From Parcubacteria group bacterium (GTDB taxonomy: Bacteria > Patescibacteriota > Minisyncoccia > Phycocordibacterales > UBA2135), in assembly GCA_016180525.1 (NCBI GenBank), contig JACPBB010000001.1, positions 11,320 through 75,319 of the forward strand: a stretch of DNA of 64,000 nucleotides, read 5' to 3'. The translations under genes and the position numbers were made by a program. Every line of letters begins with the position of its first letter. Within the stretch, counting starts at the first letter, position 1. Below are positions 22,404 through 58,374 of the stretch, piece by piece. Below the pieces are notes generated by a model. That model was given only the letters and a program-made list of their open reading frames with translations, did not search any database and was not told the origin of the DNA.

Positions 22404-22485
22404 AGGCGTTAGGCGTTAGGCGTTAGGCGTTAGGCAATCTCAATATTATTCCTAGTGCCTAATGCCTAGCTGCCAGTGCCTAAAC
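22404..22485. repeat. intergenic 7-nt-periodic palindromic element (ggcgtta x4 ... cctagtg/cctaatg arm)
   Basis: Tandem heptamers ggcgttaggcgttaggcgttaggc followed by cctagtgcctaatgcctagctgccagtgcctaa, between cysS and the corA-like gene. Confidence 0.6.
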
Positions 22486-23406
22486 TTAAAACCATTTCTT
22501 ATGTTTAAAATATAAAAAGAAAACTCCGGCTAAAACAATCATTGCGCCAACGATAAGCCAAAACCCGTTTTCCTCCTCAACAAGCGGCAAATATTCTGTA
22601 TTCATACTAAACAAGGAAGAAAAAAGCGTTAGAGGCAACATAATAAACGCCATAATCGTCAAAACCTTCATAATGTCGTTCGTTTTTGTTGTAAGCAACG
22701 AGTCGTTTGTTGCTTTCAGCTCTCCAAGGATGTCTTTGTCCGCTTCAAACAGAGATGATACTTTATAATATTCTCCCGTAATTGCATGTAAATAATAGTT
22801 AAATTCTTTTCCAAAAAACCCTTCTCCCTCTCGTTCCAATGATTCCAGCACTTGTTTGTGCTGACTTGTTGCTTTTTTAAAATGAAGAAGTTTTCTGTTC
22901 ATTCTTGAAATATGCGGGACCATTTTATGCTCCTTTCCGTTAAAAATATTATTTTCAATTTTATCCAATTCGCTTTGTACATATTCAAGTTCACCCATTA
23001 AATTTTCATATAATTCTTTCATGAGAAAAAAGAAAAGGTACCCCGCATGAGCGCCAACGTTACATTTTTTAAGTACTGCGTTGACACTAAAGAGCCGATT
23101 TGATTTTTCAAGCGAATCAATACTGCTATAGTGCACGGTAACAAAAAAACTTTTACCGATAATAAAGTCTATTTCCTGCTCTATTTCATCGCCGTGGGAA
23201 TGAGAAATGGTTGGGAAATGAAGGATTAAATAAACCAAATTTTTATACACATCCACCTTGGGACGCGCAGAAGGAGAGAGAAGCTCGTCGGCAACAAGAG
23301 GATGAATCGCGTACTCCTCAACAAGCGAACGTACTTCTTCGTGCGTAGGAGACTCCATGTCAATCCATACGAGATCTCCGCATTTTTCTTTGGTAACCAT
23401 ATACAT
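22486..23406 (-). CDS. CorA-family divalent cation transporter (variant SMN in place of the GMN signature)
   Basis: Soluble N-domain plus two C-terminal TM helices with LFSMNTEYLPL at the CorA YGMNFEYMPEL position. Confidence 0.55.
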   Translation of the reverse strand: MYMVTKEKCGDLVWIDMESPTHEEVRSLVEEYAIHPLVADELLSPSARPKVDVYKNLVYLILHFPTISHSHGDEIEQEIDFIIGKSFFVTVHYSSIDSLEKSNRLFSVNAVLKKCNVGAHAGYLFFFLMKELYENLMGELEYVQSELDKIENNIFNGKEHKMVPHISRMNRKLLHFKKATSQHKQVLESLEREGEGFFGKEFNYYLHAITGEYYKVSSLFEADKDILGELKATNDSLLTTKTNDIMKVLTIMAFIMLPLTLFSSLFSMNTEYLPLVEEENGFWLIVGAMIVLAGVFFLYFKHKKWF

Positions 23407-23464
23407 AGTATAGGGTATAACGTATAAAGTATAAAGTATATTTTACCCACATAAATTAAAAAAT

Positions 23465-23493
23465 TTGACCACATAAGTATATGTGCGATAATG
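23465..23493 (+). promoter_or_regulatory. sigma70-like promoter for the ctpA-like gene (leaderless-type spacing)
   Basis: TTGACC - 17 nt - GATAAT, ending 7 nt before the ATG at 23500. Confidence 0.35.
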
Positions 23494-23499
23494 GACTAA

Positions 23500-24738
23500 A
23501 TGCATAATAATAATTGGAAATTCTTTTTTCTGCTTATGCTCCTTGTTTTTTCTGGGGCAACTTTTGTATTGGGTATATTCGTAGGATATGAAAATAGGCC
23601 CGAAATCTTAAAAGTTATCTCGCTTGCGAATAAAGAGGCCGCGGTAGTGAGTACTGAATCAACTCTTGTAGACTTTTCTCCTTTTTGGAAATCGTGGAAT
23701 ATTATTGATGAAAAGTTTGTGGGCGTTGCAACAACGACAGGAGAACAAGAGCGTGTCTGGGGAGCAATTAAGGGACTTATAGAGTCGCTTGAAGACCCGT
23801 ATTCGGTCTTTTTCCCTCCAGCAGATGCGGAAACTTTTGCCGAAAACATAGCTGGTAATTTTGGCGGTGTGGGAATGGAAATCGGAATGCGTAACAACAT
23901 ATTAACCGTTATAGCTCCTATTAAAAACACTCCCGCGGAAAAAGCGGGAATAAAAGCGGGGGACAGAATCATTTTTATAGATGAAACGCCAACCTCAGAT
24001 TTAAATATTGAGGAGGCAGTTCGCCTTATCCGAGGCCCCGTCGGAACGTCGGTGGAAATTTCCATAGAGCGTGACAATGTTCAGGATCTCATTGAAATAT
24101 CAGTAGAGCGGGCGGTAATTTCAATTCCAACAATTGATACCGAGGAGCGTACGGATGGAATCTTTGTAATCAAATTATATAATTTTTCAGGAACATCACC
24201 TCAATTATTTAGAGAGGCGCTCCGGGAATTTGTTCTTTCAGGCAAAGATAAACTCCTTATTGACGTAAGAGGAAACGTCGGGGGATTCCTTGAGGCGGCA
24301 GTTGATATTACAAGCTGGTTCTTGCCCCCGGGAAAAATTATCGTAACGGAGGATTTTGGCGGAAAAACAGAGAATACCGTGTATAGAAGCAGGGGGTACG
24401 ATATTTTTAATGAAAACTTAAAATTAGTTATTCTAGTAGACAAAGGTTCTGCTTCGGCAACCGAGATTTTTGCAGGAGCACTTTCTGAACATGGTATTGC
24501 GACACTCGTCGGTGAAAAAACATTTGGGAAAGGGTCTGTCCAGGAATTAATCAATATAACAAGCGATACATCGCTTAAAATAACCGTTGCTCACTGGCTT
24601 ACTCCCAAAGGTAATTCTATTTCTAAAAATGGTATCGTGCCTGATGTGGAAATCCTTATAACACAAAAGGACATTGACTCAAAAAAAGACCCCCAGCTTG
24701 AAAAGGCAGTAGAAATATTAAATAATATAAGGCGCTAG
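23500..24738 (+). CDS. ctpA: carboxyl-terminal processing protease, peptidase S41 with PDZ domain
   Basis: N-terminal TM. PDZ block GGVGMEIGMRNNILTVIAPIKNTPAEKAGIKAGDRII. Catalytic-region motif GSASATEIFAGAL. Confidence 0.8.
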   Translation: MHNNNWKFFFLLMLLVFSGATFVLGIFVGYENRPEILKVISLANKEAAVVSTESTLVDFSPFWKSWNIIDEKFVGVATTTGEQERVWGAIKGLIESLEDPYSVFFPPADAETFAENIAGNFGGVGMEIGMRNNILTVIAPIKNTPAEKAGIKAGDRIIFIDETPTSDLNIEEAVRLIRGPVGTSVEISIERDNVQDLIEISVERAVISIPTIDTEERTDGIFVIKLYNFSGTSPQLFREALREFVLSGKDKLLIDVRGNVGGFLEAAVDITSWFLPPGKIIVTEDFGGKTENTVYRSRGYDIFNENLKLVILVDKGSASATEIFAGALSEHGIATLVGEKTFGKGSVQELINITSDTSLKITVAHWLTPKGNSISKNGIVPDVEILITQKDIDSKKDPQLEKAVEILNNIRR

Positions 24739-24811
24739 CCTTTAGGCACTAGGCTCTAGGAAAAATTAAAAAACCTAACGCCTAAAGTCTGACGCCTAAA
24801 GCCTAAAACCT
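24739..24811. repeat. intergenic 7-nt-periodic palindromic element
   Basis: gcctttaggcactaggctctagg - A-rich spacer - cctaacgcctaaagtctgacgcctaaagcctaaaacc, between the ctpA-like gene and rplI. Confidence 0.55.
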
Positions 24812-25255
24812 ATGAAAGTTATCTTATTACAAGATGTCCCTAAGGTGGGAAAAAAATATGAAGTGAAGGAGGTAAAAAACGGCCTTGCCCGTAATTTTCT
24901 TATTCCTAAAAAACTCGTGGAAATAGCAACCGCCGGAACTCTGAAAAAACTAGAAATTTTTAAAGAAAAAAATAAACAGGAGGAAGAAGAAAAAAATAAA
25001 GCACTACGTGACACACTCTCTGCATTAAGCAATAAAACAATTACCATAACCGTACGCGCGGGAGATATGGGGAGCCTTTTTGCTAAAATTACAGCAAAAG
25101 ATATAGCGAACGCAATTAAAAAAGAATATAACGTTAACCTTCCGGAAGAATTAATTATCTTGGAGGAGCCAATTAAAAAAATAGGGGAGTACGATATTGT
25201 GGCGGAAGTAGGGGAGAAAAAAGAAAAATTAAAAGTTGTTATAAAGGCGATATAA
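24812..25255 (+). CDS. rplI: 50S ribosomal protein L9
   Basis: MKVILLQDVPKVGKKYEVKEVKNGLARNFLIPKKLV matches the L9 N-domain consensus. 147 aa. Confidence 0.85.
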   Translation: MKVILLQDVPKVGKKYEVKEVKNGLARNFLIPKKLVEIATAGTLKKLEIFKEKNKQEEEEKNKALRDTLSALSNKTITITVRAGDMGSLFAKITAKDIANAIKKEYNVNLPEELIILEEPIKKIGEYDIVAEVGEKKEKLKVVIKAI

Positions 25256-25267
25256 AAAAGAAGCGTT

Positions 25268-25302
25268 ACAATAAAAACTTCCCGCACGGGAAGTTTTTAT
25301 TG
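25268..25302. terminator. bidirectional terminator between rplI and rpmA
   Basis: aaaaacttcccg-cac-gggaagttttt with flanking caataaaaa / tttattg. Confidence 0.65.
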
Positions 25303-25575
25303 TAATACAACGTCAATTATTTTTTTCCGAATACTATCTCCGTTAAATTTAATTTTTTTCCTGCTTCTGAATTTTACCACTCCTTCTTTGAGCGCAAAGA
25401 GTGTATGATCTTTTCCCATAGAAACATTTTTCCCTGGAAGTACGCGGGTGCCACGCTGGCGTACAAGAACAAAGCCTGCTTTCGCGGACTGACCATCTTG
25501 GATTTTTATACCGAGATATTTAGGATTTGAATCTCGAAGATTTTTTGCTGAACCTCCTGCTTTTTTATGTGCCAT
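25297..25575 (-). CDS. rpmA: 50S ribosomal protein L27
   Basis: [24 protein letters not shown]...[24 protein letters not shown] is the canonical L27 sequence. Confidence 0.85.
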
Positions 25576-25650
25576 ATGTTAGAAGATTAGGCTTTAGGCA
25601 CTAAGCTCTAGGAAAATAATTCCTAAAAGCCCAACCCAACGCCCACCACG
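25576..25650. repeat. intergenic 7-nt-periodic element (degenerate second arm)
   Basis: ggctttaggcactaagctctagg - spacer - cctaaaagcccaacccaacgccc, upstream of rpmA. Confidence 0.4.
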
Positions 25651-25732
25651 CCTACTTGATACCTTATACTCTATACTTATACTGTAATATATGAAAGAGA
25701 GTATACTGAAAATTATATTAAAAGGCAAGCGA

Positions 25733-26068: not shown

Positions 26069-26070
26069 TT

Positions 26071-33251: not shown

Positions 33252-33328
33252 ACGAGGCTTTAGGTGCTAGGCATTAGGCTTTAGGGTTTTGTTTATTGCC
33301 CTAGCGCCTAGTGCCTAACGCTTAGAGC
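33252..33328. repeat. intergenic 7-nt-periodic palindromic element
   Basis: aggctttaggtgctaggcattaggctttaggg - spacer - cctagcgcctagtgcctaacgcttagagcc. Confidence 0.55.
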
Positions 33329-34603
33329 CTACAAGTAAGACAATGGATTTAAGTACGCCTCTGTCGGCGCAATGGGAATATCAACATTTTTACAATTTTT
33401 ACTATTAACAAACCGCTCAACACGAACCCCTTGTGACGCATATACCGTAAAGTGCAAATGAGGGCCTGTGGCATATCCGGTTTTTCCGCTATATCCGATT
33501 ATCTCCCCTACAGATACCTCTTGGCCAGGAACAACTTTTATAAGAGAAAGATGCGCGTACAAAGTTGCGAGACCATTAAAATGTCGTATAAGAACCCATT
33601 TGCCGTATGAATAGCATCCTCTAACCGCATCGGTATTACCAACATCCATCACTGTTCCGTTTGCGGCACTCAAGACGACTGTTCCTACTGACGCTCTTAA
33701 ATCAATTCCGTTATGACCCCGATTGTTGTACACTTGGGGATTTTGGTTCGCAAAAGAAGTATTCCCAAAATATTGTGTGATTTTTATAGAATTAAGCGGC
33801 CAGCGCAAAATACCCTTACCCGGTTTTGGAAGACTTGTTGGATCAATTTCAATTCGTAATTGAGCTTCAAACTCCCGTAACTCTTCTTCAAGTGCCTCCC
33901 GTTTTTGCAACTGTTCAGCAAGAATTTTCTTATAATCGGATTCTCTGTTTTTTGTCTCTTTAAGCAGCGCGCTCTGGTTTGCTTTGTTTTGCCTCACAAT
34001 TTCCTTTTGGTCGGCAAGGCGGGCGTTAAATGCGACCAGGTTCCGTTTCTCTTTTTCTGACGCCGCCTTTGCTTCCTCGTGGTCAATTTTTAATTCCTGC
34101 AGTGTATTTACTTTTTCATGTACTTCATTTTGAAATTGCTGCAAACCTTGCACGCCATTCCAAAATCCGGCAAATCCAAATTCTGAAAAAATAATTTCAA
34201 TAAAACTATGTGATTCAAGCTCGTTTATTTTACGTATTGACTGACCAAGCGCCGCGTCTCCATTTTTAATTCTTTTTTCTTTATCTACAATTAAAAGCGC
34301 GAGCTCTGCTATCGTCGCATTCGCTTTTCCGATTCTTTGTTCTGTGAGCCGAATATCAGCGGTTAATTTTTTATCAGTAAGCTCGAGCTGTTTAATCGCA
34401 CTTTCAAGTGTCTGCGCTTCGTTTCCGACAGATTCTATTTGAGAATCTAGTTTGTCAATCTCCGCTTGAATTTCCTGAATTTTAGCATTTCGATCTTCTA
34501 TTTTTGACTGCAACTCATCAACAATCTGCGCGTGAACAAGAAAAAGAGGAGTTGCAAATAGCAGAACAAGGCAGAATATAATTTGATTATGTTTAGCAAA
34601 CAT
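33329..34603 (-). CDS. M23 family peptidoglycan metalloendopeptidase with N-terminal coiled-coil
   Basis: Signal peptide. Long coiled-coil. C-terminal M23 motifs HNGIDL...YAHLS...GYSGKTGYATGPHLHFTVY. Confidence 0.75.
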   Translation of the reverse strand: MFAKHNQIIFCLVLLFATPLFLVHAQIVDELQSKIEDRNAKIQEIQAEIDKLDSQIESVGNEAQTLESAIKQLELTDKKLTADIRLTEQRIGKANATIAELALLIVDKEKRIKNGDAALGQSIRKINELESHSFIEIIFSEFGFAGFWNGVQGLQQFQNEVHEKVNTLQELKIDHEEAKAASEKEKRNLVAFNARLADQKEIVRQNKANQSALLKETKNRESDYKKILAEQLQKREALEEELREFEAQLRIEIDPTSLPKPGKGILRWPLNSIKITQYFGNTSFANQNPQVYNNRGHNGIDLRASVGTVVLSAANGTVMDVGNTDAVRGCYSYGKWVLIRHFNGLATLYAHLSLIKVVPGQEVSVGEIIGYSGKTGYATGPHLHFTVYASQGVRVERFVNSKNCKNVDIPIAPTEAYLNPLSYL

Positions 34604-34728
34604 GCCTATATAAAATTTTAATTTCTAATTTTAAATTTTGAATGAATTTTAAATGATTTAATGTTTCAAAATTAATACATTAGAATTTCATTCAAAATTC
34701 AGAATTCAAAATTGAAAATTTATCATAT

Positions 34729-37162: not shown

Positions 37163-37230
37163 AGGCTTTAGGCTTTAGGCTTTAGGGATTAGGGATTACA
37201 TATTTTTCCTAACGCCTAGCGCCTAGTGCC
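37163..37230. repeat. intergenic 7-nt-periodic palindromic element between ftsW and murG
   Basis: ggctttaggctttaggctttagggattaggg - spacer - cctaacgcctagcgcctagtgcc. The arm ends 1 nt from the murG start codon. Confidence 0.6.
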
Positions 37231-38325: not shown

Positions 38326-38406
38326 AGGCGTTAGGCGTTAGGCGTTAGGCGTTAGGCGTTTTAGGATTTTAATTTTCCTAGAGCCTAGTGTCCTAGTGCC
38401 TAGAGC
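38326..38406. repeat. intergenic 7-nt-periodic palindromic element between mraY and ftsW
   Basis: ggcgttagg x5 - spacer - cctagagcctagtgtcctagtgcctagagcc. Confidence 0.6.
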
Positions 38407-39459
38407 CTAAATTAAAGCGATCACCATCCCTAAAATCGCGAGCACTCCGCTTAAAATCCAAAAGCGCATGGTAACCTTATACGCGGGCCATCCCAAAGCT
38501 TCAAAATGATGATGAATGGGCGCGATAAGAAATACTTTTCTACCAAATATTTTTTTTCCTATGAGTTGTACAATAACAGATGCCGGAGCGGCAAAGAGAA
38601 AAAAGGCAATGAGCGGCAAAACAATAACAGCCTTTGTAAGAAAGGCGACAACGGCAAGGGTCGTGGTAAGCCCTAAAATCCCCGTCTCTGACATATAGAA
38701 TCGCGCGGGAGGAATATTAAACCACAAAAACGCAAAGGTGCCTCCGGCAATGACACTGCAAAACGCCGCAAGGTCAATTTGGTTTTGAAAAAACGCGATT
38801 CCGGCATACGCGGCAAACGCAGTCGCAAGAATGCCCCCCGCAAGCCCGTCAAGCCCGTCAATAACCCCACCCGAAAAAAGAGCAAGCATGACAAGCATAA
38901 AGAAAGGTATAAAAAAAATCCCTAGAGAAATTTCCCCGAGAAACGGTATCGCGATAGTACTCACGCCCAATTTAACAAAAAACCACCATGCACCGATTGC
39001 CCCAATCCCTAAAACAGTAGCGATACGAAAAGACAATGGAAGCCCCCCGGCAACATATCCGCCTCGCCCAAACACAACTAAAAAATCATCAAATAATCCG
39101 ACACACGATGCCGCAAGAAGCGTAAAAAGGGGTAGCCAAGTTTGACTTCTGCTTAAAAAATTAAATTTTTCAGCTGCTTCCCCGGAAAATAGCTTTGATA
39201 GTAAAAAAAAGAATAAAACAGTAATAAGCGTTGAAAGCCAAATAATAATACCTCCCATACGCGGAGTGTTCGTTTCTTTTTCTTTATGAAGCGCGTTGAA
39301 AAGCGGCGTCTCCCCTCCTCCGAGCGCTTCATTCCGCGCTTTTTTTTTCCAAAGTTTATATTTATAGAGATAGTGCGTAACAAACGGAGTTATTGAAATG
39401 CCAATAGCAAACGCGACTGTCGCAGGAATAAATACTTTTAAGACGTTGATGATTTCCAT
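38407..39459 (-). CDS. mraY: phospho-N-acetylmuramoyl-pentapeptide transferase
   Basis: Polytopic membrane protein with MraY-type conserved loops (DD...DGLDGLAGG). dcw context. Confidence 0.8.
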   Translation of the reverse strand: MEIINVLKVFIPATVAFAIGISITPFVTHYLYKYKLWKKKARNEALGGGETPLFNALHKEKETNTPRMGGIIIWLSTLITVLFFFLLSKLFSGEAAEKFNFLSRSQTWLPLFTLLAASCVGLFDDFLVVFGRGGYVAGGLPLSFRIATVLGIGAIGAWWFFVKLGVSTIAIPFLGEISLGIFFIPFFMLVMLALFSGGVIDGLDGLAGGILATAFAAYAGIAFFQNQIDLAAFCSVIAGGTFAFLWFNIPPARFYMSETGILGLTTTLAVVAFLTKAVIVLPLIAFFLFAAPASVIVQLIGKKIFGRKVFLIAPIHHHFEALGWPAYKVTMRFWILSGVLAILGMVIALI

Positions 39460-39530
39460 GATACTAGGCTTTAGGCTTTAGGCTTTAGGAATTTCGTTTT
39501 TTCTAATGCCTAGCGCCTAGTGCCTCAATA
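39460..39530. repeat. intergenic 7-nt-periodic palindromic element immediately upstream of mraY, at the host-side edge of the GC-rich cassette
   Basis: ctaggctttaggctttaggctttagg - aatttcgttttttc - taatgcctagcgcctagtgcc. Confidence 0.6.
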
Positions 39531-39603
39531 ATATTATAACACTAAATAGACCTCGCTCAGAAGTTCGCCTCGTTAGAAATTCAGCCATTATTGTTTTTTA
39601 AAA

Positions 39604-39648
39604 TAAAAAAAGCCCCCCGAGCTACCGCGTAAGCAGTAGCATCGGGGG
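39604..39648 (-). terminator. intrinsic terminator downstream of the 566-aa GC-rich gene
   Basis: Minus-strand reading: cccccgatgctactgcttacgcggtagctcggggggc followed by ttttttt. Confidence 0.6.
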
Positions 39649-39717
39649 ACGTAGTTTGCTCTCCTCAAGAGTATTTCTCAACTAAAGAGGAGAAAAGAAC
39701 ATTGCCTTGTCGGACCG

Positions 39718-41418
39718 TTAGGCGTGGGCGTGGACCGTTGCGGCCTTCTTCGCCTTGGCCTTGCCCTTCTTGGCCTTCGGCTTGGGCGCGTCGGCGACCG
39801 CTTCGGTGGGAACTTCCTCGGGCTTCGAGGGAGTCTCCGGCGTGGCGGTCTTCTCGGCGGAGCGCCTGGCGATCTTGCCGAGCTCCCGAACGATCTTCTT
39901 GAACTCGTTCGGGTCCGTGAGAAGCGCCTTGTGCTTCTCCGGATACTCGACGGCCGTGATATCGCCGCCAGCTTCCGCGCGCGAGGCGAGGAAGTGGACC
40001 TGGAAGTGCTTCTTGCCCTTGCTGTCCCTCCAGGGGAACTTGATGAAGGAGTAGGACATGCCGGCCTTCGCGGGTTCGCCGAAGAAGTCCCCGAAGGAAA
40101 CGTTGGCCTTGCTGTTGTAGTTGTCCTTCTCCGTCTTGTACGCTTCATGTGCGTCTTCCTGCTTCTGGGCGCACTTGAACGCCCAGGAAAGCCGGCGGTA
40201 CAAGTCCTTCAAATTGCCGAACTCGTGCTGGTTGGGCACGAAGTAAGGCAACTCGAGATAGAACTTGTCCAGATCCTGGAGGGACTCCAGGGGAATCGCC
40301 CACGGGGCGATGCGGTGGCCGCGGTCGGAAACCGGCGAAGCGAGCGACGTCAAGGCCTCGGAGAGGGTCTGATAGACGACCTTTTCATAGCCTTCGCCGT
40401 CGTTCGGATACTCCATCGCCTTGCCGTCGACGACCTGAGGACCTTCGCGGGTAGGCGGTACAAGCGAGACGAAGATGCCCGTGTAGGGAACCTTGTTCCC
40501 GTCCTTGTCCTTCGACATGCGCGTGTCTTCAAACGCGCAGAGAAGGGCGCCGCCTTCGTGGGTCACGAATCGGACTTTCTTGTCCTGTGTGCCCCCCTTT
40601 TGCCGCGGGAACCAAACGTAGCAGGTTGCCGCTGGCACTTGCCGTGGCTTGCCGTCCTTGTCTCGACGTATGACGGTGGTCGTGAGATCTTTCTTGGTCA
40701 CCGAGCGGAACTCGGAGACCCACTTGACCGTCGCCTGGTTGCGAAACGCTGCGGACCCATCCTTGGTGTCGGCGCGGGAGACGAAGTATGCCCCGCGCGC
40801 CTTCTCCGAGAGGAGCATGAGAATGTTGAGGTCATAGACCTCGTTCTCGTACTCCTTGGTCGCGCCGATCCACGTGCCGTTGACCAAGGCGCCGATCGGG
40901 AGCTTCTCCTTGGAGGCGAAGATGATGTTTCGCTCCAAGCCGAACTGATTCATCCGTTCCGCCACGCTCGCAAGAGCACCATCCGGAACGATTTGGCCGA
41001 GCATCGCGGCGAGAAAATGAACTCCCGCCGTATGCATGAACCGGTCCTTCTGATCCCCAACGAAATTCTTGGCGTCGGGGAAAACGTCGACGTCGGCGTC
41101 ACAGAAGCGCTCGGCGGTCTTGACCATCTCCTCGGCGGAATGTCCCGCCTGAAGAAGCGCTGCCGCCTTCGTGGCGTACAGCGCGACGAATTCGGGAACC
41201 TGCGTCATGAGGGTGTTGAAAGCGCCCTCGTTTGCCGCTTGTTCCTCGGGCGTGGACTGGATCGTTGGCAGCGTGAAGCCGCCTGTCTTGGTGGTCTGCA
41301 TGGCTTTCGCCTCCTTGTGGTTGCCGTTTGGTTTTGACTCGTCAGGACGCCGAGTCACCTTGATGCCCTTTGCCTCCAGCGCTTGCTGGGTTTGGGGGTT
41401 GATGATCTCACCAGTCAT
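39718..41418 (-). CDS. hypothetical protein (566 aa) with C-terminal Lys/Ala/Pro-rich histone-H1-like tail; GC-rich, foreign composition
   Basis: ~60% GC, AAG/GCC codons. C-terminus PKPKAKKGKAKAKKAATVHAHA. Own -10-like TATAAT upstream and a hairpin + T-tract terminator downstream (39604..39648). Confidence 0.55.
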   Translation of the reverse strand: MTGEIINPQTQQALEAKGIKVTRRPDESKPNGNHKEAKAMQTTKTGGFTLPTIQSTPEEQAANEGAFNTLMTQVPEFVALYATKAAALLQAGHSAEEMVKTAERFCDADVDVFPDAKNFVGDQKDRFMHTAGVHFLAAMLGQIVPDGALASVAERMNQFGLERNIIFASKEKLPIGALVNGTWIGATKEYENEVYDLNILMLLSEKARGAYFVSRADTKDGSAAFRNQATVKWVSEFRSVTKKDLTTTVIRRDKDGKPRQVPAATCYVWFPRQKGGTQDKKVRFVTHEGGALLCAFEDTRMSKDKDGNKVPYTGIFVSLVPPTREGPQVVDGKAMEYPNDGEGYEKVVYQTLSEALTSLASPVSDRGHRIAPWAIPLESLQDLDKFYLELPYFVPNQHEFGNLKDLYRRLSWAFKCAQKQEDAHEAYKTEKDNYNSKANVSFGDFFGEPAKAGMSYSFIKFPWRDSKGKKHFQVHFLASRAEAGGDITAVEYPEKHKALLTDPNEFKKIVRELGKIARRSAEKTATPETPSKPEEVPTEAVADAPKPKAKKGKAKAKKAATVHAHA

Positions 41419-41509
41419 GGTGATTTCCTTTCTTTCTGTCTGTAGTTGTCAAGGTCTTAAAGGGTTTTTCCGTACAAAAAACGTACACCCTCTTCGTACT
41501 AATTGTTAT

Positions 41510-41563
41510 TATAGCAAAAAAGAAAGGCCCTGTCAAGTACCTTTCTAGGTTCCTGACAGGGCC
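41510..41563 (-). terminator. hairpin + T-tract after the 211-aa cassette gene, also containing a -10-like element for the 566-aa gene
   Basis: Minus-strand reading: ggccctgtcaggaacctagaaaggtacttgacagggcc tttctttttt gctataataacaa. Confidence 0.5.
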
Positions 41564-41588
41564 GCAAAAAACTCTTTACCTGTGAGCT

Positions 41589-42224
41589 TTAATCATCCCA
41601 CCGTCGCCGGGGATCAGCTTCCAACTTAGACATGTGCTCGGGAAGAAAAGACAGGCTTCCGACTTCACGAACGGAGACAACGATATCTCCGTCCTCATCT
41701 TTTGCTTCAATGAACATTGCGCGATGCTCGTCACCCAACTGTATTTTCACAAAAACAGGATTGAAAATGCCATCTTTGCCAGGATAGGCAAGGGGCTGAA
41801 GCGTTTCTGTCGCCCATCCTTTCTTACTTGTCCTTACCATATCGTGCATTGAGAAGCCGAACGGAAATCGCTCTGTTGCTCCTTTTCGTCCGCAGATCAT
41901 GAAGTGACGCGGGTTCTTCCGCTGTAACAACAGCCAATGAAGCGGCTGTGCGAGAGCGCGGCGTGCCCCTGGAAAAGTGATATTCGTTTCCTCTCCGCTG
42001 AACACACGCCCCGGTATGTATGAATATGCAGGAAGCGCGACGTGCACAACCGGCTTACCCTTGTTGCTTCCATGCACTACTAAGTTTGTTTTGAGTGCTT
42101 CAAGTTCCTTGGTCCAATCTGAAAGTTCTGAAGAGAGCGGAAGGTCAAAATTAAGTTGAAAAGCGATTCTCAAAAACGGTGCATCCACCCCAATGGGGTA
42201 GAATTTCCGAGTTTCATTCGTCAT
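41589..42224 (-). CDS. hypothetical protein (211 aa), middle gene of the GC-rich cassette
   Basis: ORF with ~50% GC. Start overlaps the stop of the upstream nuclease gene (ATGA). Followed by a hairpin terminator at 41510..41563. Confidence 0.45.
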   Translation of the reverse strand: MTNETRKFYPIGVDAPFLRIAFQLNFDLPLSSELSDWTKELEALKTNLVVHGSNKGKPVVHVALPAYSYIPGRVFSGEETNITFPGARRALAQPLHWLLLQRKNPRHFMICGRKGATERFPFGFSMHDMVRTSKKGWATETLQPLAYPGKDGIFNPVFVKIQLGDEHRAMFIEAKDEDGDIVVSVREVGSLSFLPEHMSKLEADPRRRWDD

Positions 42225-43690
42225 ATTCCGACCTCCGTTCCATGCTTGGGATAGGCAAACCGTTCGCTGTCCTTGCCCGTAAGATATCGCGTTGCTTGCG
42301 AGAACTCGGCGTGAACAACAACGATTCGTTTGGGAGAGAGCATGTCCACCATGCGCTCAAACTCCCCCTCTTCCTGGTGAGAAGAGGTCGCGAGTCGGTG
42401 CACCTCGCACCGCACTTCATATGTGTCATGCCCGATTTCTATCGTGCATGGATCCGAACTAGCTCCAATACTAACCTCTTCAGCGGCACCATGACGATGC
42501 GCAAGTAAGGCTGTACCGGGCGAACAGGGGTCTTGCCAATTATTGATGACAAACGAGACGTCTGCGTGTTCCACGCCACGAGTAAGCCACCAATGAGCGG
42601 GGCTTCGGTCGGGAAACATGCCTCCGGCAGCAACAACAATCGCATGCCGGCTGCGAAGCACTTCTTCACGCTCCCGCTTGCCGTGGATAAACGTGAGGTT
42701 CTCAAGCAGATGCTGCTGCTCCGGTTCTAAACACTCTTTGAATATTTGAAGCGCCCTGTCTCCGCCATCAATATAGAGCTTTGCGACCTTTTCAAGGCCG
42801 GCATTGCGAATCCGTGCAATGTTGTCCGGCTCACGATGGATGGAAAGCGACGGTACCACCACAATCCCTCCACGGTTAAGTGTCCCGAGAAAACTGTCGC
42901 TCTCAAGGAAACCCTCAACGGGAGTTTCAAGCGGATCCGGAATTTTGCCCAAATTGGTACCATCCGGAATCAACATGTCTATTTTAATGTCAGGACGCAC
43001 TGCGCCCCTGATGAAAATCTGGTCTTTATCGGACGTGTCCCCTGTCGCAAGCACACGGGCCTCTCCGCCATTTGAAAGCTTCTGGCAGAAAAGAAACGAA
43101 GCCGCGCCAAGAATATGCCCTGCCGGAATTACAACCATTGTGAGGGTGGGATTCAACTCAATCATCTCACCAAAGTGTATAATTCGCACATACTCTTCAA
43201 GCGTATCAATATCGTGTTCATCAAAAAGCGGCTGATGACCTTTCCAGTCAGGATTCCGCTTCATTGAATTAACTGTCTGGGTTAACTGATGTTTCGTAAA
43301 TCGCCACGCGGGCCCCGTCATCCAAATACGCAACGAGTCTGGCGTAAGAGACGGGTTTGCCGCGAGCATTAACTTAAACTGAAGCGCAAGCGCTCCGATA
43401 TGGTCAAGATGAGCGTGGGTAATTACAATATCTCGTATCCCCATAAGTGCACCGATGTTTTTGTACAAAACATGGGGAAGTGCTTTCTTGTATGTCTCTG
43501 GTGCCCACGAAACGCGTGGCCGAGTTCCAGATTCAAGCTGAACTTCATATCCTAAAAAGTTCAGAACATATAAAGCTGCTCCAATTTCACGAACTGCGCC
43601 GTACCCAGTGAAAGAAATATCACGCGGGGAGGGAGCCCGAGTTCGGTTCATTTTGTACATCTTTCGTTTAGCTATTCTGTGTGGTGTCAT
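42221..43690 (-). CDS. metallo-beta-lactamase fold nuclease of the beta-CASP family (RNase J/CPSF73/SNM1-like)
   Basis: N-terminal GYGAVREIGAALYVLNFLGYEVQLESG. Motif 2 VITHAHLDHIGAL. Beta-CASP-like AGHILGAASF. C-terminal VVVHAE. First gene of the GC-rich cassette. Confidence 0.6.
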   Translation of the reverse strand: MTPHRIAKRKMYKMNRTRAPSPRDISFTGYGAVREIGAALYVLNFLGYEVQLESGTRPRVSWAPETYKKALPHVLYKNIGALMGIRDIVITHAHLDHIGALALQFKLMLAANPSLTPDSLRIWMTGPAWRFTKHQLTQTVNSMKRNPDWKGHQPLFDEHDIDTLEEYVRIIHFGEMIELNPTLTMVVIPAGHILGAASFLFCQKLSNGGEARVLATGDTSDKDQIFIRGAVRPDIKIDMLIPDGTNLGKIPDPLETPVEGFLESDSFLGTLNRGGIVVVPSLSIHREPDNIARIRNAGLEKVAKLYIDGGDRALQIFKECLEPEQQHLLENLTFIHGKREREEVLRSRHAIVVAAGGMFPDRSPAHWWLTRGVEHADVSFVINNWQDPCSPGTALLAHRHGAAEEVSIGASSDPCTIEIGHDTYEVRCEVHRLATSSHQEEGEFERMVDMLSPKRIVVVHAEFSQATRYLTGKDSERFAYPKHGTEVGI

Positions 43691-43866
43691 TTCGTCCTTC
43701 CTGCTGTTGTTTTAAGCCAGAATTGGCCTAATTTTTTTCAATGTTCCATTCAATGCTTATAATACTACATTACTATAAAAAAGTCAACCCCGATAATATT
43801 ATCAGCAAGGACGATCGTCAGGCTTCTAAAGAAGTCTCAACACCATCGAAGTGTCCATTTCACATT

Positions 43867-44799: not shown

Positions 44800-44865
44800 A
44801 AAAATTTAGGGTTTAGCGGATAGCGTTTAGACGAAACTGAACCCTAAACGCTGTACGCTAAACGC
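44800..44865. repeat. intergenic palindromic element, sequence variant (gggtttagcg / cgctaaacgc arms)
   Basis: gggtttagcggatagcgtttag - spacer - ccctaaacgctgtacgctaaacgc. Same architecture with different heptamers. Confidence 0.45.
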
Positions 44866-47903: not shown

Positions 47904-47975
47904 AGCTATTGTATTTATAGTATCTCGTATTTGGTATCTGGTATTTAGTATGTTTAAAATTATACGAGATACTGT
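47904..47975. repeat. intergenic palindromic element, sequence variant (gtatctcgta / tacgagatac)
   Basis: agtatctcgtatttggtatctggtatttagtatg ... tacgagatact: inverted arms flanking short direct repeats. Between trpS and aspS. Confidence 0.4.
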
Positions 47976-53300: not shown

Positions 53301-53354
53301 AATATTATTAAATTAAGACTTGTAATCTGTAACTTGTAACCCACGATTTTATTT

Positions 53355-53381
53355 TTAGCACATGCACCGCGTGAGTTACAT
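53355..53381. promoter_or_regulatory. degenerate CIRCE-like inverted repeat between grpE and dnaK
   Basis: TTAGCACat-gcaccgcgt-gagttacat versus consensus TTAGCACTC-N9-GAGTGCTAA: 7/9 matches on the left arm, 5/9 on the right. Confidence 0.2.
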
Positions 53382-53404
53382 GTTTCATGCTACCAGTTTC
53401 ATGA

Positions 53405-54029: not shown

Positions 54030-54069
54030 TTACGAAGTAAATTTGTCCCTTTTGTTGAAGGAGAAAATT

Positions 54070-54219: not shown

Positions 54220-54292
54220 CAGAATTAAGTAGCCGTTTTTATTACTGAAAGAGTTATAAAATGGCGAGCATTGGATGCTCGCCATTTTTCTA

Positions 54293-54721: not shown

Positions 54722-54731
54722 AGATAATGTT

Positions 54732-55103: not shown

Positions 55104-55106
55104 ATT

Positions 55107-55457
55107 TTATACAAATTCAATGATTGCCATTTTGCTGGCATCTCCTAAGCGACGAGGCAGTTTGGTAATTCTTGTGTACCCTCCAGCTCGTTCTTTATAG
55201 CGAGGCGCAATATCAGCGATAAGCTTCTTGGCGCCCACCCTGTTACCAAGACGTGCCACCAAAAGTCTGTGTGTAGAAAGTGAACTATTTTTTCCTCTTG
55301 TCACCAATTTTTCAACAAAGGGCCGTAATTCCTTCGCCTTTGCTTCAGTTGTTTTAATTTTTCCTCTAGTGACAAGAGAAAGTGCTAAACCACGAAGAAG
55401 CGCCCTCCTTTGGTCTCTTTCTCTTCCAAATTTTCTGTTTTTGTTATGATGCCTCAT
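55107..55457 (-). CDS. rplQ: 50S ribosomal protein L17
   Basis: MRHHNKNRKFGRERDQRRALLRGLALSLV is the L17 consensus. Confidence 0.9.
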   Translation of the reverse strand: MRHHNKNRKFGRERDQRRALLRGLALSLVTRGKIKTTEAKAKELRPFVEKLVTRGKNSSLSTHRLLVARLGNRVGAKKLIADIAPRYKERAGGYTRITKLPRRLGDASKMAIIEFV

Positions 55458-55538
55458 GTTACTAGGCTTTAGGCTTTAGGCTTTAGGCTTTAGGAATCGT
55501 TGTTTTTTCCTAGTGCCTAGCGCCTTAACGCCTAGTGC
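55458..55538. repeat. intergenic 7-nt-periodic palindromic element between rpoA and rplQ
   Basis: ctaggctttagg x4 - aatcgttgttttttc - ctagtgcctagcgccttaacgcctagtgcc. Confidence 0.6.
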
Positions 55539-56504
55539 CTATTTTAAAGTTATTCCAAAATTTCCAAGCGTCCGTTTAATTTCTTGAACACCTTTCTCGC
55601 CAAGACCTGATACATTCGATAAATCATCCGCGCTTTTTCGTATTAAACCACCTACTGTTCGTATATTTGCCCCTGAGAGTGCATTCGCTGTTCTCGTAGA
55701 AAACCCCAAAGTGTCAATCCGTGTTTTAAGAAAGTCCTTATCAATATTTTCATTCTCTCCTACACCCGCTTCTCCGTCTTCCGATACTGCTTGTTTTATT
55801 TTCTCTTCCGTATCCTGAAAGCCGACAATCGCTTTCAATTGCTTTATCATAATATCAATTGAGTTTTCAAGCGCTTCGCGCGGGGAAAGAGTGCCATCAG
55901 TTTCTATAAAAATACGCAACTTGTTGTAATCAGTTCTGTCGCCAACACGCATATTTTCAACTTCATAATTGACTCGACGAATCGGTGTAAATACCGCATC
56001 AAGTACAATAGTGCCAATTTCAACTTTTTCTTTTTGTAAAACTTCCTTAGGAACATACCCGAGTCCACGTTCAAGCCGAATGCTCGCGTTAAGCGAAGTC
56101 TTTTTATTAGTAATTTCACCAATATATTGTTCGGGGTTTAAAACTTCAACCTGTCCAGGCACTTTTATATCAGCACCTGTAATTTTTTTCATCCCCGAAA
56201 CAGAAAGAGAGACTTCTTGTGATTCATCGGTAACCATTTTAAATCTAACTTTTTTTAAATTTAAAATAAGAGTAATAATATCTTCCTTTATTCCATCTAG
56301 GGTTGAAAACTCATGCTGAACTCCATCAATTTTAATAGACGTAATCGCAGTCCCCGGCAAAGAAGAAAGAATAATGCGCCGTAATGAATTTCCAAGCGTA
56401 TGTCCGTACCCGGGATACAAACTATCAATCTCATACATACCCCTGAATCCATCTTCAGAAATTACTTTTGGTTTTGACGGAAGAATTATAGTATAGTCAG
56501 GCAC
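55539..56504 (-). CDS. rpoA: DNA-directed RNA polymerase alpha subunit
   Basis: YGHTLGNSLRRIILSSLPGTAITSIKIDGVQHEFS N-terminal-domain signature. C-terminal helix-hairpin-helix region. Confidence 0.9.
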   Translation of the reverse strand: MPDYTIILPSKPKVISEDGFRGMYEIDSLYPGYGHTLGNSLRRIILSSLPGTAITSIKIDGVQHEFSTLDGIKEDIITLILNLKKVRFKMVTDESQEVSLSVSGMKKITGADIKVPGQVEVLNPEQYIGEITNKKTSLNASIRLERGLGYVPKEVLQKEKVEIGTIVLDAVFTPIRRVNYEVENMRVGDRTDYNKLRIFIETDGTLSPREALENSIDIMIKQLKAIVGFQDTEEKIKQAVSEDGEAGVGENENIDKDFLKTRIDTLGFSTRTANALSGANIRTVGGLIRKSADDLSNVSGLGEKGVQEIKRTLGNFGITLK

Positions 56505-56636
56505 AATTTTTTGATTCGTTTAATTAAATTTTAAAATTCAAGATAAAAATTTAAAATAATTAAACGAGATATTTATTAATAATAATTTTATTAAACTTTT
56601 AAAAAATAATACAAAATACTTAATACGTTATAATGT

Positions 56637-57242
56637 TTATCTGCTATAAAATCCTATAACTGCGGGTATGCTAAACACATCTCCAGAAATCATTTCTAAT
56701 TTTGGAATCCCGATAACATTTCCTTCCATTTTTTTAGGATCAAGCGAGAGCCATGCGGGAGTAATATGAGTATTGAGAGATTCCGAAATATTCATAAACA
56801 GCTTACTTTCTCTGCTTCCGGGTCGTATTTCTATACGATCCTTACCTCCGACGGTAAAAGATGGAATATTCACCCTTCTACCGTTCACCATAATATGTCC
56901 ATGGGACACCATCTGACGAGCAAGAGGACGTGTTTTTGCAAAACCAAGTCTAAATACTACATTGTCGAGTCTTAATTCAAGATTTTTATATAAATGTTCA
57001 GCTGGATTTACCCCTTTTTTAAGTGTTGCTTTTTTCACATATGTCGCAAACTGCCGTTCGTTTAAATTATACGTCAAACGCATTTTTTGTTTTTCAAGAA
57101 GTTGAATTCCGAATTCGGTAATCGGCGATGGATGTTTCCGTGCGACTGTCTTTTTCGTCAAAATAAATTTTGGGTTTTGTGTTTTAGAAAAAATTCGTGC
57201 CCCTAGACGACGTGCTGTTTTGTATTGTTTTAGTTTTGCCAT
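56637..57242 (-). CDS. rpsD: 30S ribosomal protein S4
   Basis: Start reset to the internal Met (MAKLKQYKTARRLGARIF), the canonical S4 N-terminus. The upstream part of the ORF track overlaps a repeat element. Confidence 0.85.
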   Translation of the reverse strand: MAKLKQYKTARRLGARIFSKTQNPKFILTKKTVARKHPSPITEFGIQLLEKQKMRLTYNLNERQFATYVKKATLKKGVNPAEHLYKNLELRLDNVVFRLGFAKTRPLARQMVSHGHIMVNGRRVNIPSFTVGGKDRIEIRPGSRESKLFMNISESLNTHITPAWLSLDPKKMEGNVIGIPKLEMISGDVFSIPAVIGFYSR

Positions 57243-57260
57243 AAAAATAATGAATGAAAT

Positions 57261-57383
57261 GAATATATTTTTTGAGCACCCCCTTCTTTTCGCGCAAGCG
57301 CGCAAAAGGAGGGGGTAAAGGTTTGGCATCCACAGTTTTTGTTCCGACATGTCGGAACAAAAACTGTGGGCCAATTCACTTTA
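57261..57383. ncRNA. duplicated structured intergenic element, copy A (two hairpins) between rpsK and rpsD
   Basis: gaatatattttttgagcaccccc. Hairpin 1: cccccttcttttcgcgcaagcgcgcaaaaggaggggg. Hairpin 2: ccacagtttttgttccgacatgtcggaacaaaaactgtgg with a 19-bp stem. Ends at ccaattcacttta, abutting the rpsK stop. Confidence 0.45.
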
Positions 57384-57815
57384 CACTCTTCTTGGTTTCT
57401 TTGGCTTAGGACCATTATGTGGAATAGGCGTTTCATCCCGAATCACTTTTAGTTCCACCCCGCGGGAAGCAAAAGAGCGTAGAGATGATTCACGTCCTGG
57501 GCCAACTCCAGATAATACTACAACAACCTCTTTTATTCCTATAGTTTTCGCTTTTTCCCCGATAAGTTCCCCTACTTTCGCGGCGGCAAACGGGGTTCCT
57601 TTTTTTGTTCCTTTAAATCCTAAGGAACCGCTTGACGACCAACAAAGCGTGTTACCTTTTTTATCGGAAAGTAAAAGGTGCGTATTGTTGTATGTTGACT
57701 GGATATGAAGTATTCCATCGGAAACTTTTTTCTTGGGAGATTTACCCAAAGACCTGGTGCGTAATTCCGCATCAAATCCGCCACCGCTTTTTTGTACTGT
57801 TCGTTTTTTTCCCAT
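57381..57815 (-). CDS. rpsK: 30S ribosomal protein S11
   Basis: GILHIQSTYNNTHLLLSDKKGNTLCWSSSGSLGFKG...KVGELIGEKA is the S11 consensus. Confidence 0.9.
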   Translation of the reverse strand: MGKKRTVQKSGGGFDAELRTRSLGKSPKKKVSDGILHIQSTYNNTHLLLSDKKGNTLCWSSSGSLGFKGTKKGTPFAAAKVGELIGEKAKTIGIKEVVVVLSGVGPGRESSLRSFASRGVELKVIRDETPIPHNGPKPKKPRRV

Positions 57816-57902
57816 GATACTAGGCTTTAGGCTTTAGGCTTTAGGCTTTAGGAATATTATTATTTCTTCCTAGTGCCTAGTGCCTAATGTCTAGTCCCTG
57901 AA
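57816..57902. repeat. intergenic 7-nt-periodic palindromic element between rpsM and rpsK
   Basis: ctaggctttagg x4 - aatattattatttcttc - ctagtgcctagtgcctaatgtctagtccc. Confidence 0.6.
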
Positions 57903-58283
57903 TTATGTCTTTTCCAACTTCCGCTTACCGGATCCCATTGTTTTTCTCACATTGCCACGAACCGTTCTTGAATTCGACTTTGTCTGCTGGCCACGAACCG
58001 GCAAATTTTTAGCATGACGAATTCCGCGATATGCCTTTATGTCTTTAAGACGTTTAATATTCCCCGCAACTTCTCTTTTCAACTCCCCTTCAATTACATA
58101 TTCTTCTACTAATTTTCGAATCTTGTTTTCATCCTCTGCTTTTAGGTCAGTTGATTTTAGAGTTTTATCAACGTGCGCTTTCTCTAAAATAGTTAGAGCT
58201 CGTGACCGACCAATGCCATAAACAGCCATGAGTGCAAACTCAAGGCGTTTCTGTTCTGGAATTGTAATACCTGCGATACGCAT
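57903..58283 (-). CDS. rpsM: 30S ribosomal protein S13
   Basis: MRIAGITIPEQKRLEFALMAVYGIGRSRA is the S13 consensus. Confidence 0.9.
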   Translation of the reverse strand: MRIAGITIPEQKRLEFALMAVYGIGRSRALTILEKAHVDKTLKSTDLKAEDENKIRKLVEEYVIEGELKREVAGNIKRLKDIKAYRGIRHAKNLPVRGQQTKSNSRTVRGNVRKTMGSGKRKLEKT

Positions 58284-58374
58284 GATACTAGGCTTTAGGC
58301 TTTAGGCTTTAGGCTTTAGGAATATCATTGCTTTCTCCCTAGCGCCTAGTGCCTAATGTCTAGTGCCTGAATTA
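58284..58374. repeat. intergenic 7-nt-periodic palindromic element between rpmJ and rpsM
   Basis: ctaggctttagg x4 - aatatcattgctttctcc - ctagcgcctagtgcctaatgtctagtgcc. Near-identical to the 57816 copy. Confidence 0.6.

Follow-up and report, generated by a model that had tools for sequence, protein, structure and literature searches.

The STRR heptanucleotide repeats of cyanobacteria were reportedly described by Mazel et al. in 1990. Other tandem heptamers of intergenic DNA are the TAACTGA direct repeats of marine Beggiatoaceae, some Cyanobacteria and Bacteroidetes, for which a translational role has been proposed (MacGregor 2015, PMC4679880), and the GGGAATC-type repeats of Xanthomonas and Nostoc (Rehm et al. 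2015, PMC4692102); in Xanthomonas, some arrays form convergent inverted pairs, that is, potential stem-loops (PMC4692102). Here we analyze a 64,000-nt stretch from a Parcubacteria group bacterium (assembly GCA_016180525.1, contig JACPBB010000001.1, positions 11,320 to 75,319 of the forward strand), referred to below as the window, and a family of heptad-built elements in it, the TAGGC family. The element is a dispersed hairpin spacer that runs from the stop codon of one gene to the start codon of the next. It is locked in orientation to its gene and widespread in Patescibacteria, and it is dispensable yet strongly constrained in sequence. A full-text literature search with the repeat strings and with heptamer or palindromic repeats in Patescibacteria yielded no description of it (the top exact-string match is an unrelated CRISPR repeat), so that the element is apparently undescribed.

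The TAGGC family, a hairpin of 70-90 nt, is represented in the window by ten copies between 22.4 and 58.4 kb, with none expected by chance. In the gene sense, all of them consist of the upstream stop codon, three to five (C/T)TAGGCNC heptads (the 5' arm), an A-rich loop of 10-18 nt, and three to five CCTAAAG or CCTAACG heptads (the 3' arm, with three to eight repeats given for the element at large). The copies have no constant head, their 5' ends being TAA-GGCAC, TTCAGGSAC or (A/C)AGGC, and CTAGG or TTAGG recurs within each unit. An earlier note, made from this sequence without database searches, had described a dispersed family of imperfect palindromes composed of heptamers, situated in transcribed spacers of the dcw and ribosomal-protein/rpoA operons and sometimes abutting the next ATG, and our analysis bears out this description. 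The six copies regarded there as the core (37163, 38326, 39460, 55458, 57816 and 58284) are present in the sequence as described, and four more (22404, 24739, 25576 and 33252) have been added. The total of at least 12 elements given there holds if hairpins made of other heptamers (see below) are counted, while the TAGGC family proper comprises ten copies and two short remnants at about 45438 and 46533. The copies, with flanking genes and open reading frames (ORFs) named by Pfam, are as follows.

22404-22485, minus strand: TAGGC copy filling the spacer from the corA stop to the cysS ATG; the 3' arm, (CCTAACG)x4, abuts the ATG.
24729-24811 (intergenic part 24739-24811), plus strand: TAGGC copy between the S41 protease gene and rplI; the TAG in heptad 1 (24736-24738) serves as the stop of the protease gene, and the 3' arm abuts the ATG.
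25576-25650, minus strand: degenerate TAGGC copy between divergent genes, where it belongs to the rpmA (L27) 5' leader; its 3' arm reads CCTAGAG CTTAGTG CCTAAAG CCTAATC, the rpmA ATG is 9 nt further, and the 5' arm has lost the TAG stops and has TGGGC units instead.
33252-33331 (intergenic 33252-33328), minus strand: TAGGC copy between an M23 peptidase gene, which ends on the TAG in heptad 1, and a small membrane ORF; the copy is followed by TGTTATAAT, 6 nt and the ATG of this ORF at 33232-33230, a leaderless-promoter geometry.
37163-37230, minus strand: TAGGC copy forming exactly the 68-nt spacer from the ftsW TAA to the murG ATG, with 0 nt to spare at both ends.
38326-38409 (intergenic 38326-38406), minus strand: TAGGC copy between mraY, whose stop is the TAG of the first heptad, and ftsW; the (CCTAACG)x5 arm abuts the ATG.
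39460-39530, minus strand: TAGGC copy in the 5' leader of mraY, with no upstream cistron.
55458-55541 (intergenic 55458-55538), minus strand: TAGGC copy between rpoA, whose stop is the TAG of the first heptad, and rplQ; (CCTAAAG)x4 is followed by AGTAAC and the ATG.
57816-57902, minus strand: TAGGC copy between rpsM and rpsK, reading TAA, TTCAGGGAC and further heptads, (CCTAAAG)x4, AGTATC, ATG.
58284-58374, minus strand: TAGGC copy between rpmJ (L36, 58375-58488) and rpsM, nearly identical to the rpsK copy, flanks included.

Nearly the whole gap between stop and start is taken up by the element in eight of the ten copies. The distance from the 3' arm to the AUG is 0-21 nt, and 0-9 nt in all copies but one: the ATG follows the arm immediately in cysS, rplI, murG and ftsW, and AGTATC or AGTAAC lies between them in mraY, rplQ, rpsK and rpsM. 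At the other end, four copies have the upstream stop within the array, as the TAG of heptad 1, and in most others a TAA is located 0-6 nt ahead of the array. Genes on both sides are co-directional in eight copies; the earlier claim that the elements sit almost exclusively between such genes is correct for these, but not for the rpmA copy in its divergent region or for the mraY copy; a terminator and an extended -10 box (TGTTATAAT) stand ahead of the latter, which therefore belongs to a 5' leader. The orientation relative to the gene is identical in all ten copies, and the rplI copy, the only one in the plus orientation, is flipped along with its gene. As had been noted before, none of the six frames is free of stop codons in any copy, UAG of the 5' arm and UAA of the 3' arm together shutting the three forward ones.

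Chance does not account for these arrays. The two-heptad 3'-arm pattern CCTAAMGCCTAAMGCC, searched with at most one mismatch, has 23 matches against 0.00 in 100 dinucleotide-preserving shuffles, and the pattern of the other arm, TAGGCNYTAGGCNYTAGG, has 42 against 0.00 in such shuffles; Tandem Repeats Finder identifies period-7 arrays in both arms. A scan of the whole window against Rfam at the gathering threshold gave zero matches, and ARAGORN found neither tRNA nor tmRNA in it. Two simple candidates could be rejected. A replication-oriented signal (KOPS or Chi-like) is not compatible with the orientation, which switches per gene within 11 kb (cysS minus, rplI plus, the 33.2-kb copy minus) and therefore does not track the direction of replication. 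A small ORF within the loop is not compatible with the fact that the ATG of some loops (AGGAAAATGAAAATT) is ACG in sister copies.

Among the published phenomena, the TAACTGA arrays (PMC4679880) are the closest. As in the present element, tandem heptamers are situated there a few nucleotides 5' of start codons, in the forward orientation only and in spacers lacking a Shine-Dalgarno (SD) sequence; forward-frame stops confine the repeats to intergenic DNA, and both kinds occur in ribosomal-protein operons and are patchy among relatives. The present element differs in its heptamer (CCTAAAG/CCTAACG) and its host (Patescibacteria). Moreover, its array is always paired with an imperfect inverted TAGGCNC arm, producing a hairpin that reaches to the upstream stop, while TAACTGA arrays are not predicted to fold. 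With the STRR and GGGAATC-type repeats the element shares tandem 7-nt intergenic units at many loci per genome, whose length and sequence vary between related genomes; those repeats, however, are G-rich, have been discussed as G-quadruplex formers, and have not been reported as locked to starts or spanning from stop to start. The STRR consensus sequences are also different, and their hosts are heterocystous cyanobacteria, while the best matches of ribosomal protein S11 encoded here are from the Parcubacteria/Patescibacteria group. The obligatory imperfect inverted arm, the stop-to-start geometry and the Patescibacteria-wide distribution are new compared to the known heptamer arrays.

The earlier note had likened the element to repetitive extragenic palindromic (REP) sequences and bacterial interspersed mosaic elements (BIMEs). 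Indeed, these are also short imperfect palindromes, dispersed in many copies over transcribed extragenic DNA and potentially forming hairpins in mRNA. However, the present element has no GTAG-type head, its arms are longer and consist of tandem heptads, it occurs in single copies and not in alternating pairs or clusters, its orientation is strictly gene-locked (10/10 in the window; 50 vs 9 in metagenomes, see below), and no RAYT gene has been found in the window. Miniature inverted-repeat transposable elements (MITEs), such as Neisseria Correia, ERIC/IRU and pneumococcal RUP/BOX, resemble it in having inverted-repeat termini, in being co-transcribed in or next to transcription units, in presence or absence at orthologous sites, and in breaking assemblies. 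Unlike them, it shows no target-site duplication and has no known related insertion sequence (IS); MITEs are found in both orientations, and the present element is better conserved than its flanks. By these comparisons it does not qualify as a REP/BIME, a MITE or, as discussed below, a terminator.

Both strands of the element fold significantly better than dinucleotide shuffles (z-scores of -3.5 to -4.9 on the mRNA strand and of -2.8 to -7.3 on the antisense one). The long RNA hairpin proposed before is therefore there, but its strong, G-U-containing version belongs to the plus strand, which in all but one of the ten copies runs antisense to the genes. On that strand ggcuuuaggc and gccuagugcc do pair at nine positions out of ten (eight Watson-Crick pairs and one G-U). 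In the mRNA each G-U is replaced by a conserved C.A mismatch, and 5-bp blocks (UAGGC/GCCUA) are separated by 2-nt internal loops; as two of the seven heptad positions are held mismatched in this way, the mRNA hairpin is weaker than the antisense one. The composition of the arms in 77 Patescibacteria-type copies illustrates this. The 5'-arm units are TAGGCAC (54), TAGGCGC (34) and TAGGCTC (34), while TAGGCTT, the perfect partner, occurs just 8 times; the 3'-arm units are AAGCCTA (209) and ACGCCTA (42). Opposite the invariant A there is C in 96 and T in 41 cases in low-GC copies, compared to 90 T and 7 C in symmetric high-GC relatives. Judging from these sequences, the sense-strand mismatch is a conserved feature rather than decay, the hairpin being deliberately imperfect. 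The pairing itself is supported across families, since complementary arms recur in the window and in relatives with other heptamers (AGCGTNT/AAACGCT, TTTTGAA/TTCAAAA, CGTGAAA/TTTCACG). In particular, the rpoA-rplQ junction has TAGGC/AGCCT in the window and TAGGT/AACCT in a relative (contig L248), with both arms changed.

Outside the window, more than 119 genome contigs, representing many phyla, have (CCTAAMG)x3, and the full-element pattern is present in more than 120 metagenome contigs. Several of the matches are from assemblies of the Hainich aquifer. Copies from Nomurabacteria, Paceibacterota, Falkowbacteria and Parcubacteria metagenome-assembled genomes (MAGs) have the same hairpin and the same position of the ATG. 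The element is thus not confined to this contig, nor is it lineage-specific, as the earlier note had supposed, given its presence on more than 100 metagenome contigs and in these MAGs and the symmetric relatives in several other phyla. Orientation statistics were obtained for 69 unique low-GC metagenome copies, asymmetric like those of the window. An ORF starts at most 45 nt from the 3' arm in 58 of them, mostly at 1-8 nt (or plus multiples of 7), an upstream ORF stops at the 5' arm in 53, and the copies flanked by co-directional ORFs are in the sense orientation in 50 cases and in the antisense one in 9. High-GC metagenome copies are perfect symmetric palindromes, and the orientation bias is absent there. 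Downstream of the element in metagenome contigs there are core housekeeping genes encoding NusA, NusB, NusG, MreB, SecY, EF-G, RpoA and FolD, as well as ribosomal proteins S5, S7, S8, S11, S14, L9, L14 and L20. Loops fall into subfamilies that recur across contigs (GGAAACTAGC, GGAAAAACGAAAATTCC and CTAGCAAAAAAGCTA), the commonest being GGAAACTAGC, which has a GAAA tetraloop closed by CUAG/CUAG and a loop length of 4-8 nt.

Related inverted cores (TAGGCGT/ACGCCTA, TAGGCTG/CAGCCTA, TGGGCTT/AAGCCCA) with perfectly complementary arms, often just 5' of an ATG, are observed in Thermomicrobiales, Hydrogenedentes, Vicinamibacterales, Acidobacteriota, Planctomycetes and Chamaesiphon (for example, contigs L009, L013, L018, L048, L078 and L107), so that one GCCTA core is found again in different phyla. 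Viral contigs yielded no full element but 11 plain arrays, none of which belongs to the Patescibacteria type. Three related viral contigs (L251, L254 and L257) have (CCTAACG)x3 at a gene end, followed by a canonical SD sequence (AAAGGAGAAA) and the ATG, with no hairpin.

Where both flanking genes are homologous, the element is considerably more conserved than its surroundings. Spacer identity at syntenic junctions is 91-97% compared to 66-75% in flanking coding DNA 5' of folD (three contigs), 88% compared to 72-75% 5' of atpC, and 84% compared to 63-74% 5' of holB. The family consensus, the mismatch pattern and the loop subfamilies are retained across lineages whose housekeeping proteins are 50-70% identical. 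Phase variation was rejected, as heptad numbers are identical in all nine pairs of near-identical contigs from different samples. Occupancy of particular junctions varies among close relatives. The relative with S11 89% identical (L248) has TAGGC at rpsM-rpsK, TAGGT/AACCT at rpoA-rplQ and AGCGT/CTAAACC at rplQ-rplM; the one at 85% (L123) has AGCGTNT/AAACGCT and other heptads in its ribosomal-protein operon; and the one at 75% (L125) has the orthologous operon with no element. Two junctions that carry the element both in the window and in L248, rpsM-rpsK and rpoA-rplQ, are empty in L125 and L121, and hold other families in L123 and L124.

The geometry of the spacers is compatible with a role in translation. 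In 55 stop-to-start spacers (median length 78 nt), the predicted helix foot is located at a median of 2 nt past the stop codon, which itself lies within the predicted helix in 20 of them; the median distance from the predicted helix end to the AUG is 6 nt, and the total of both unpaired stretches has a median of 7 nt. According to ViennaRNA predictions, opening of the region from -18 to +12 costs 7.5-17.3 kcal/mol in element genes, the control median being 8.1 (54 genes), and this cost decreases to 2.6-8.6 kcal/mol when 13 nt after the upstream stop are held single-stranded, as by a terminating ribosome. An SD core is present at -20 to -4 in 8 of 72 genes, at the level of the 9.6% background, and in the element spacers the ATG is preceded by CCTAAAGCCT(AGTATC), with no canonical ribosome-binding site. 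The AGGA-like stretch that the earlier note considered as supplied by the spacer is situated in the loop, approximately 45-55 nt 5' of the AUG, and is missing from the large CTAGCAAAAAAGCTA subfamily, and hence cannot be a normal SD sequence. Since SD sequences are rarely used in this genome, we infer that initiation on the downstream gene would take place at the 3' arm, which is poor in G and rich in A and C.

Hairpins that work in a way the present element may share are known. In E. coli rpmI-rplT and MS2 coat-replicase, a hairpin masks the downstream start and the upstream ribosome opens it, and in the cauliflower mosaic virus (CaMV) 35S leader ribosomes are shunted across a hairpin base after a short ORF. 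The present element would work similarly, with the start region paired with the end of the upstream ORF, the stop and the start juxtaposed at the helix foot, and the predicted opening of the start region dependent on a ribosome at the upstream stop. The known cases, however, are unique, locus-specific and usually mask an SD sequence, while here a modular SD-less cassette is repeated at many junctions in many genomes and its function is predicted. Our tentative reading, for which the odds are somewhat short of even, is that the element is a hairpin bridging stop and start that would cover a start region lacking an SD sequence for as long as no ribosome has terminated at the foot of the stem. 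Pairing in the hairpin would hide the site where translation of the downstream gene begins; on terminating at the 5' foot, a ribosome would open the lower part of the stem and thereby uncover the 3' arm and the AUG next to itself, and translation of the downstream gene would thereby be coupled to that of the upstream one via re-initiation or facilitated initiation. Stops of the element would first halt ribosomes in any frame, and the built-in mismatches would leave the stem weak enough for opening. The arrays probably arise and resize through heptad slippage and templating of one arm on the other. Taken with the spacer geometry, the predicted energetics favor coupling over the decoupling that the earlier note had suggested.

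This reading has several observations against it. Two of the ten copies, those of mraY and rpmA, are 5' leaders with no upstream cistron, and coupling cannot explain them. The antisense strand folds more stably than the mRNA strand, because the G-U pairs are present there. The folding and covariation check proposed in the earlier note is favorable in its first part, given the significant folds, and uninformative in the second: the paired columns are invariant and the variable position is not linked to its partner (Fisher p = 1.0), so that the family provides no covariation proof of an RNA structure. A relative with S11 90% identical (L121) has the orthologous ribosomal-protein operon without any such element, and another one (L124, 84%) has the TAGGC family, with identical loops, at rpsK-rpsD and rplQ-rplM, that is, at junctions other than those of the window; the element is therefore dispensable and turns over. 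Finally, the hairpin, the orientation lock and the conservation would also fit an RNA-stability or processing signal or a protein-binding site.

The turnover could also be expected if the cell tolerated the element as selfish DNA or as a by-product, whether it be a small mobile element that is non-autonomous or a functionless quasi-palindrome born by slippage. Copies would then survive only where their orientation does no harm, with the weaker hairpin on the mRNA and the G-poor arm by the start, while streamlining would trim the remaining spacer. We consider this possible, but on the unlikely side. It agrees with the patchiness among close relatives (none in L121, other junctions in L124, two shared junctions in L248) and with the likeness of copies from the same genome, which extends to the loop and flanks in the rpsK and rpsM copies and to an identical loop in the two L124 copies. 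It also agrees with assemblies breaking inside the element: a public 4.2-kb contig of the same organism (L120) ends within the ftsW copy (38326), and many close S11 homologs are on contigs shorter than 1.3 kb. Exact-protein look-ups matched that 4.2-kb contig alone for FtsW and nothing for S11 and S13; the organism is represented in SRR12113430. Heptamer simple sequence repeats are over-represented in many bacteria, with slippage proposed as the cause (PMC4692102), and a weaker hairpin on the sense strand is expected under selection against strong mRNA structure. However, the spacer is far better conserved than the essential genes flanking it at syntenic junctions, and the consensus with its mismatch pattern and loop subfamilies is kept across distant lineages. 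No RAYT/Y1_Tnp or other transposase domain was detected among about 70 ORFs scanned within the 64-kb window, and neither the window nor the fetched loci showed an autonomous IS sharing the termini of the element. The longest direct repeats at the helix foot are distributed as in the shuffled-partner control, giving no sign of target-site duplication, though the element boundaries are somewhat fuzzy. Moreover, viral contigs are devoid of full elements, and the heptad number is constant between near-identical strains. The same conservation, exceeding what pairing needs across distant lineages, would be expected of a periodic protein-binding array on the mRNA, by which a factor specific to Patescibacteria, ribosomal protein S1, or a protein of the cold-shock or CsrA-like type would recruit ribosomes to the adjacent start codon or block them there; such an array has been proposed for the TAACTGA repeats of Beggiatoaceae (PMC4679880). 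The orientation locked to the transcript with the array beside the AUG, the many translation and transcription genes downstream (the ribosomal proteins listed above, EF-G, NusA/B/G, RpoA, SecY), and the position and SD-poor context shared with the published TAACTGA analog (PMC4679880) are in line with such binding. We nevertheless regard it as improbable: the two arms differ in sequence and would require two specificities, and spacers of the same genome have very different heptamers in the same architecture, which argues for structure or geometry rather than for one sequence-specific binder.

Hairpins at cistron boundaries may also act on the RNA itself. REP hairpins in E. coli and intercistronic hairpins in organelles produce RNA segments with different lifetimes, and the present element could similarly be punctuation for RNA processing or stability, either a substrate for an RNase specific to double strands or to structure, or a block to exonucleases; in both cases it would split the polycistronic RNA into segments of differing lifetime. 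Significant hairpins located exactly at cistron boundaries, the abundant subfamily with the GAAA tetraloop closed by CUAG/CUAG, signs of leaderless or short-leader mRNAs (TGTTATAAT with 6 nt and the ATG at 33.23 kb; -10-like boxes 0-12 nt from starts), and other, non-heptad hairpins at the same junctions in relatives are consistent with this role. Still, a stability hairpin needs neither an orientation lock, nor abutment on the AUG, nor conserved mismatches, and the helix foot is directly at the AUG only in a minority of spacers, so that, with the median gap of 6 nt, exact leaderless 5' ends would not be produced; the chances of this explanation seem to us rather low. Lastly, it is very improbable that the element is a transcription signal, that is, an intrinsic terminator or attenuator, or an internal promoter, for which TAGGCA of the 5' arm would be the -35-like element and the A/T-rich loop would provide the -10-like one. 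The promoter scan does find TAGGCA-16-AATAAT within the rpsK copy and AGGACA-17-TAAAAT within the ftsW copy, but promoter-like matches overall are only modestly above shuffle expectation, and an internal promoter was rejected as a general role, since the GGAAACTAGC loop of 4-8 nt leaves no space for a -10 box. As for termination, the sense hairpin is followed by the ATG and coding sequence rather than a U-tract, and no element was scored as terminator-like, while canonical terminators with U-tracts were scored elsewhere in the window and none of them coincides with an element.

The same design (heptad arm, loop, complementary heptad arm, ATG) with other heptamers is observed in at least five more spacers of the window.

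34604-34728, minus strand: spacer with TTTTGAA / TTCAAAA heptamers between gltX and an M23 peptidase gene.
44800-44865, minus strand: spacer with a GCGTTTA arm, a loop and a CTAAACG arm between scpB and a D-Ala-D-Ala carboxypeptidase gene; this heptamer family is also present in relatives L123 and L248.
47904-47975, minus strand: spacer between two aminoacyl-tRNA synthetase genes, the 5' arm being AGTATCTCGTAT and further heptads and the 3' arm AAATACC/AGATACC/AAATACG.
53301-53404, minus strand: spacer with CATGAAA / GTTACAA heptads between grpE and dnaK.
58489-58588, minus strand: infA-rpmJ spacer, in which TACGAAT-type repeats (period about 9) make up a hairpin.

A close match to the infA-rpmJ spacer is found 3' of rpsK in relative L249 (699-877), which makes it another shared spacer family. 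Period-7 arrays with no evident inverted partner are located directly 5' of start codons at 23407-23440 and 25653-25683; (AGTATAA)x5 ahead of corA and a TATACTN array ahead of a 125-aa ORF at 25691 both resemble runs of -10 boxes. A second intergenic module, unrelated to the heptads, occupies 60366-60579 on the minus strand between two ORFs with no Pfam match in the window. It consists of AGYGAATTGGCCC, a hairpin, GCCAAACCTTTACCC, a second hairpin and GGGTGCTCAAAAAATATATTC, has no Rfam match, and is found between rpsM and rpsK in three relatives (L124, 4319-4503; L125, 9920-10000; L249, 141-263); its GGGTGCTCAAA block is invariant across the alignment.

TATAAT-like boxes 0-12 nt from the start codon, with no SD sequence, are observed in many other genes of the window, and the extended -10 box (TGTTATAAT) also stands about 7 nt ahead of the start of the mraY element (39531-39560 region). 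Judging from this pattern, mRNAs with a very short leader or none may be frequent here; -10-like boxes are enriched close to starts in a suggestive way, but the sample is too small to rely on. Upstream of mraY there is a high-GC island (39541-43866, GC content 0.49-0.56 compared to about 0.38-0.40 elsewhere), which looks like an insertion that split the dcw cluster. It carries ORFs of 566 and 211 aa with no Pfam match and a 489-aa ORF of the metallo-beta-lactamase/RMMBL type (beta-CASP RNase-like), has SD-like sites at some genes, and contains a strong terminator at about 39611-39660. The TAGGC copies are confined to the housekeeping part of the window, with none in positions 1-21000, where nearly all ORFs have no Pfam match, the exceptions being a weak holin-like match, an Ig-like surface domain, a GNAT domain and an AMP-binding fragment; this part of the window may be variable or mobile. 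An 18/36-nt tandem repeat, TCAAGGTTATTACTATGC, is present there in 4.3 copies at 11640-11717, inside a segment called non-coding (11535-11821); if translated, it would give a repeat peptide of the GYYYA type.

Patescibacteria constitute a large share of bacterial diversity, and to our knowledge almost nothing is known about the control of gene expression in them. Here one small cassette is found in many genomes at many junctions, including those of ribosomal-protein, rpoA, cell-division, secY, nusA and folD genes. At the practical level, the elements break short-read assemblies, and gene callers can misplace the starts and stops adjacent to them. Extending the reading of the element as a hairpin that couples translation across the spacer, one may speculate, with considerable doubt, about a phylum-wide modular "stop-start bridge" read by the conserved translation machinery, by which SD-poor Patescibacteria would re-initiate across a spacer of about 80 nt as if the genes overlapped, and which would be related to the heptamer arrays beside start codons in other phyla. 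If the element indeed couples or insulates translation, it would provide a compact part for synthetic biology and a concrete, testable role for the long-noted excess of heptamer repeats near bacterial starts (TAACTGA, STRR), and would explain how operon stoichiometry is kept in SD-poor streamlined genomes.

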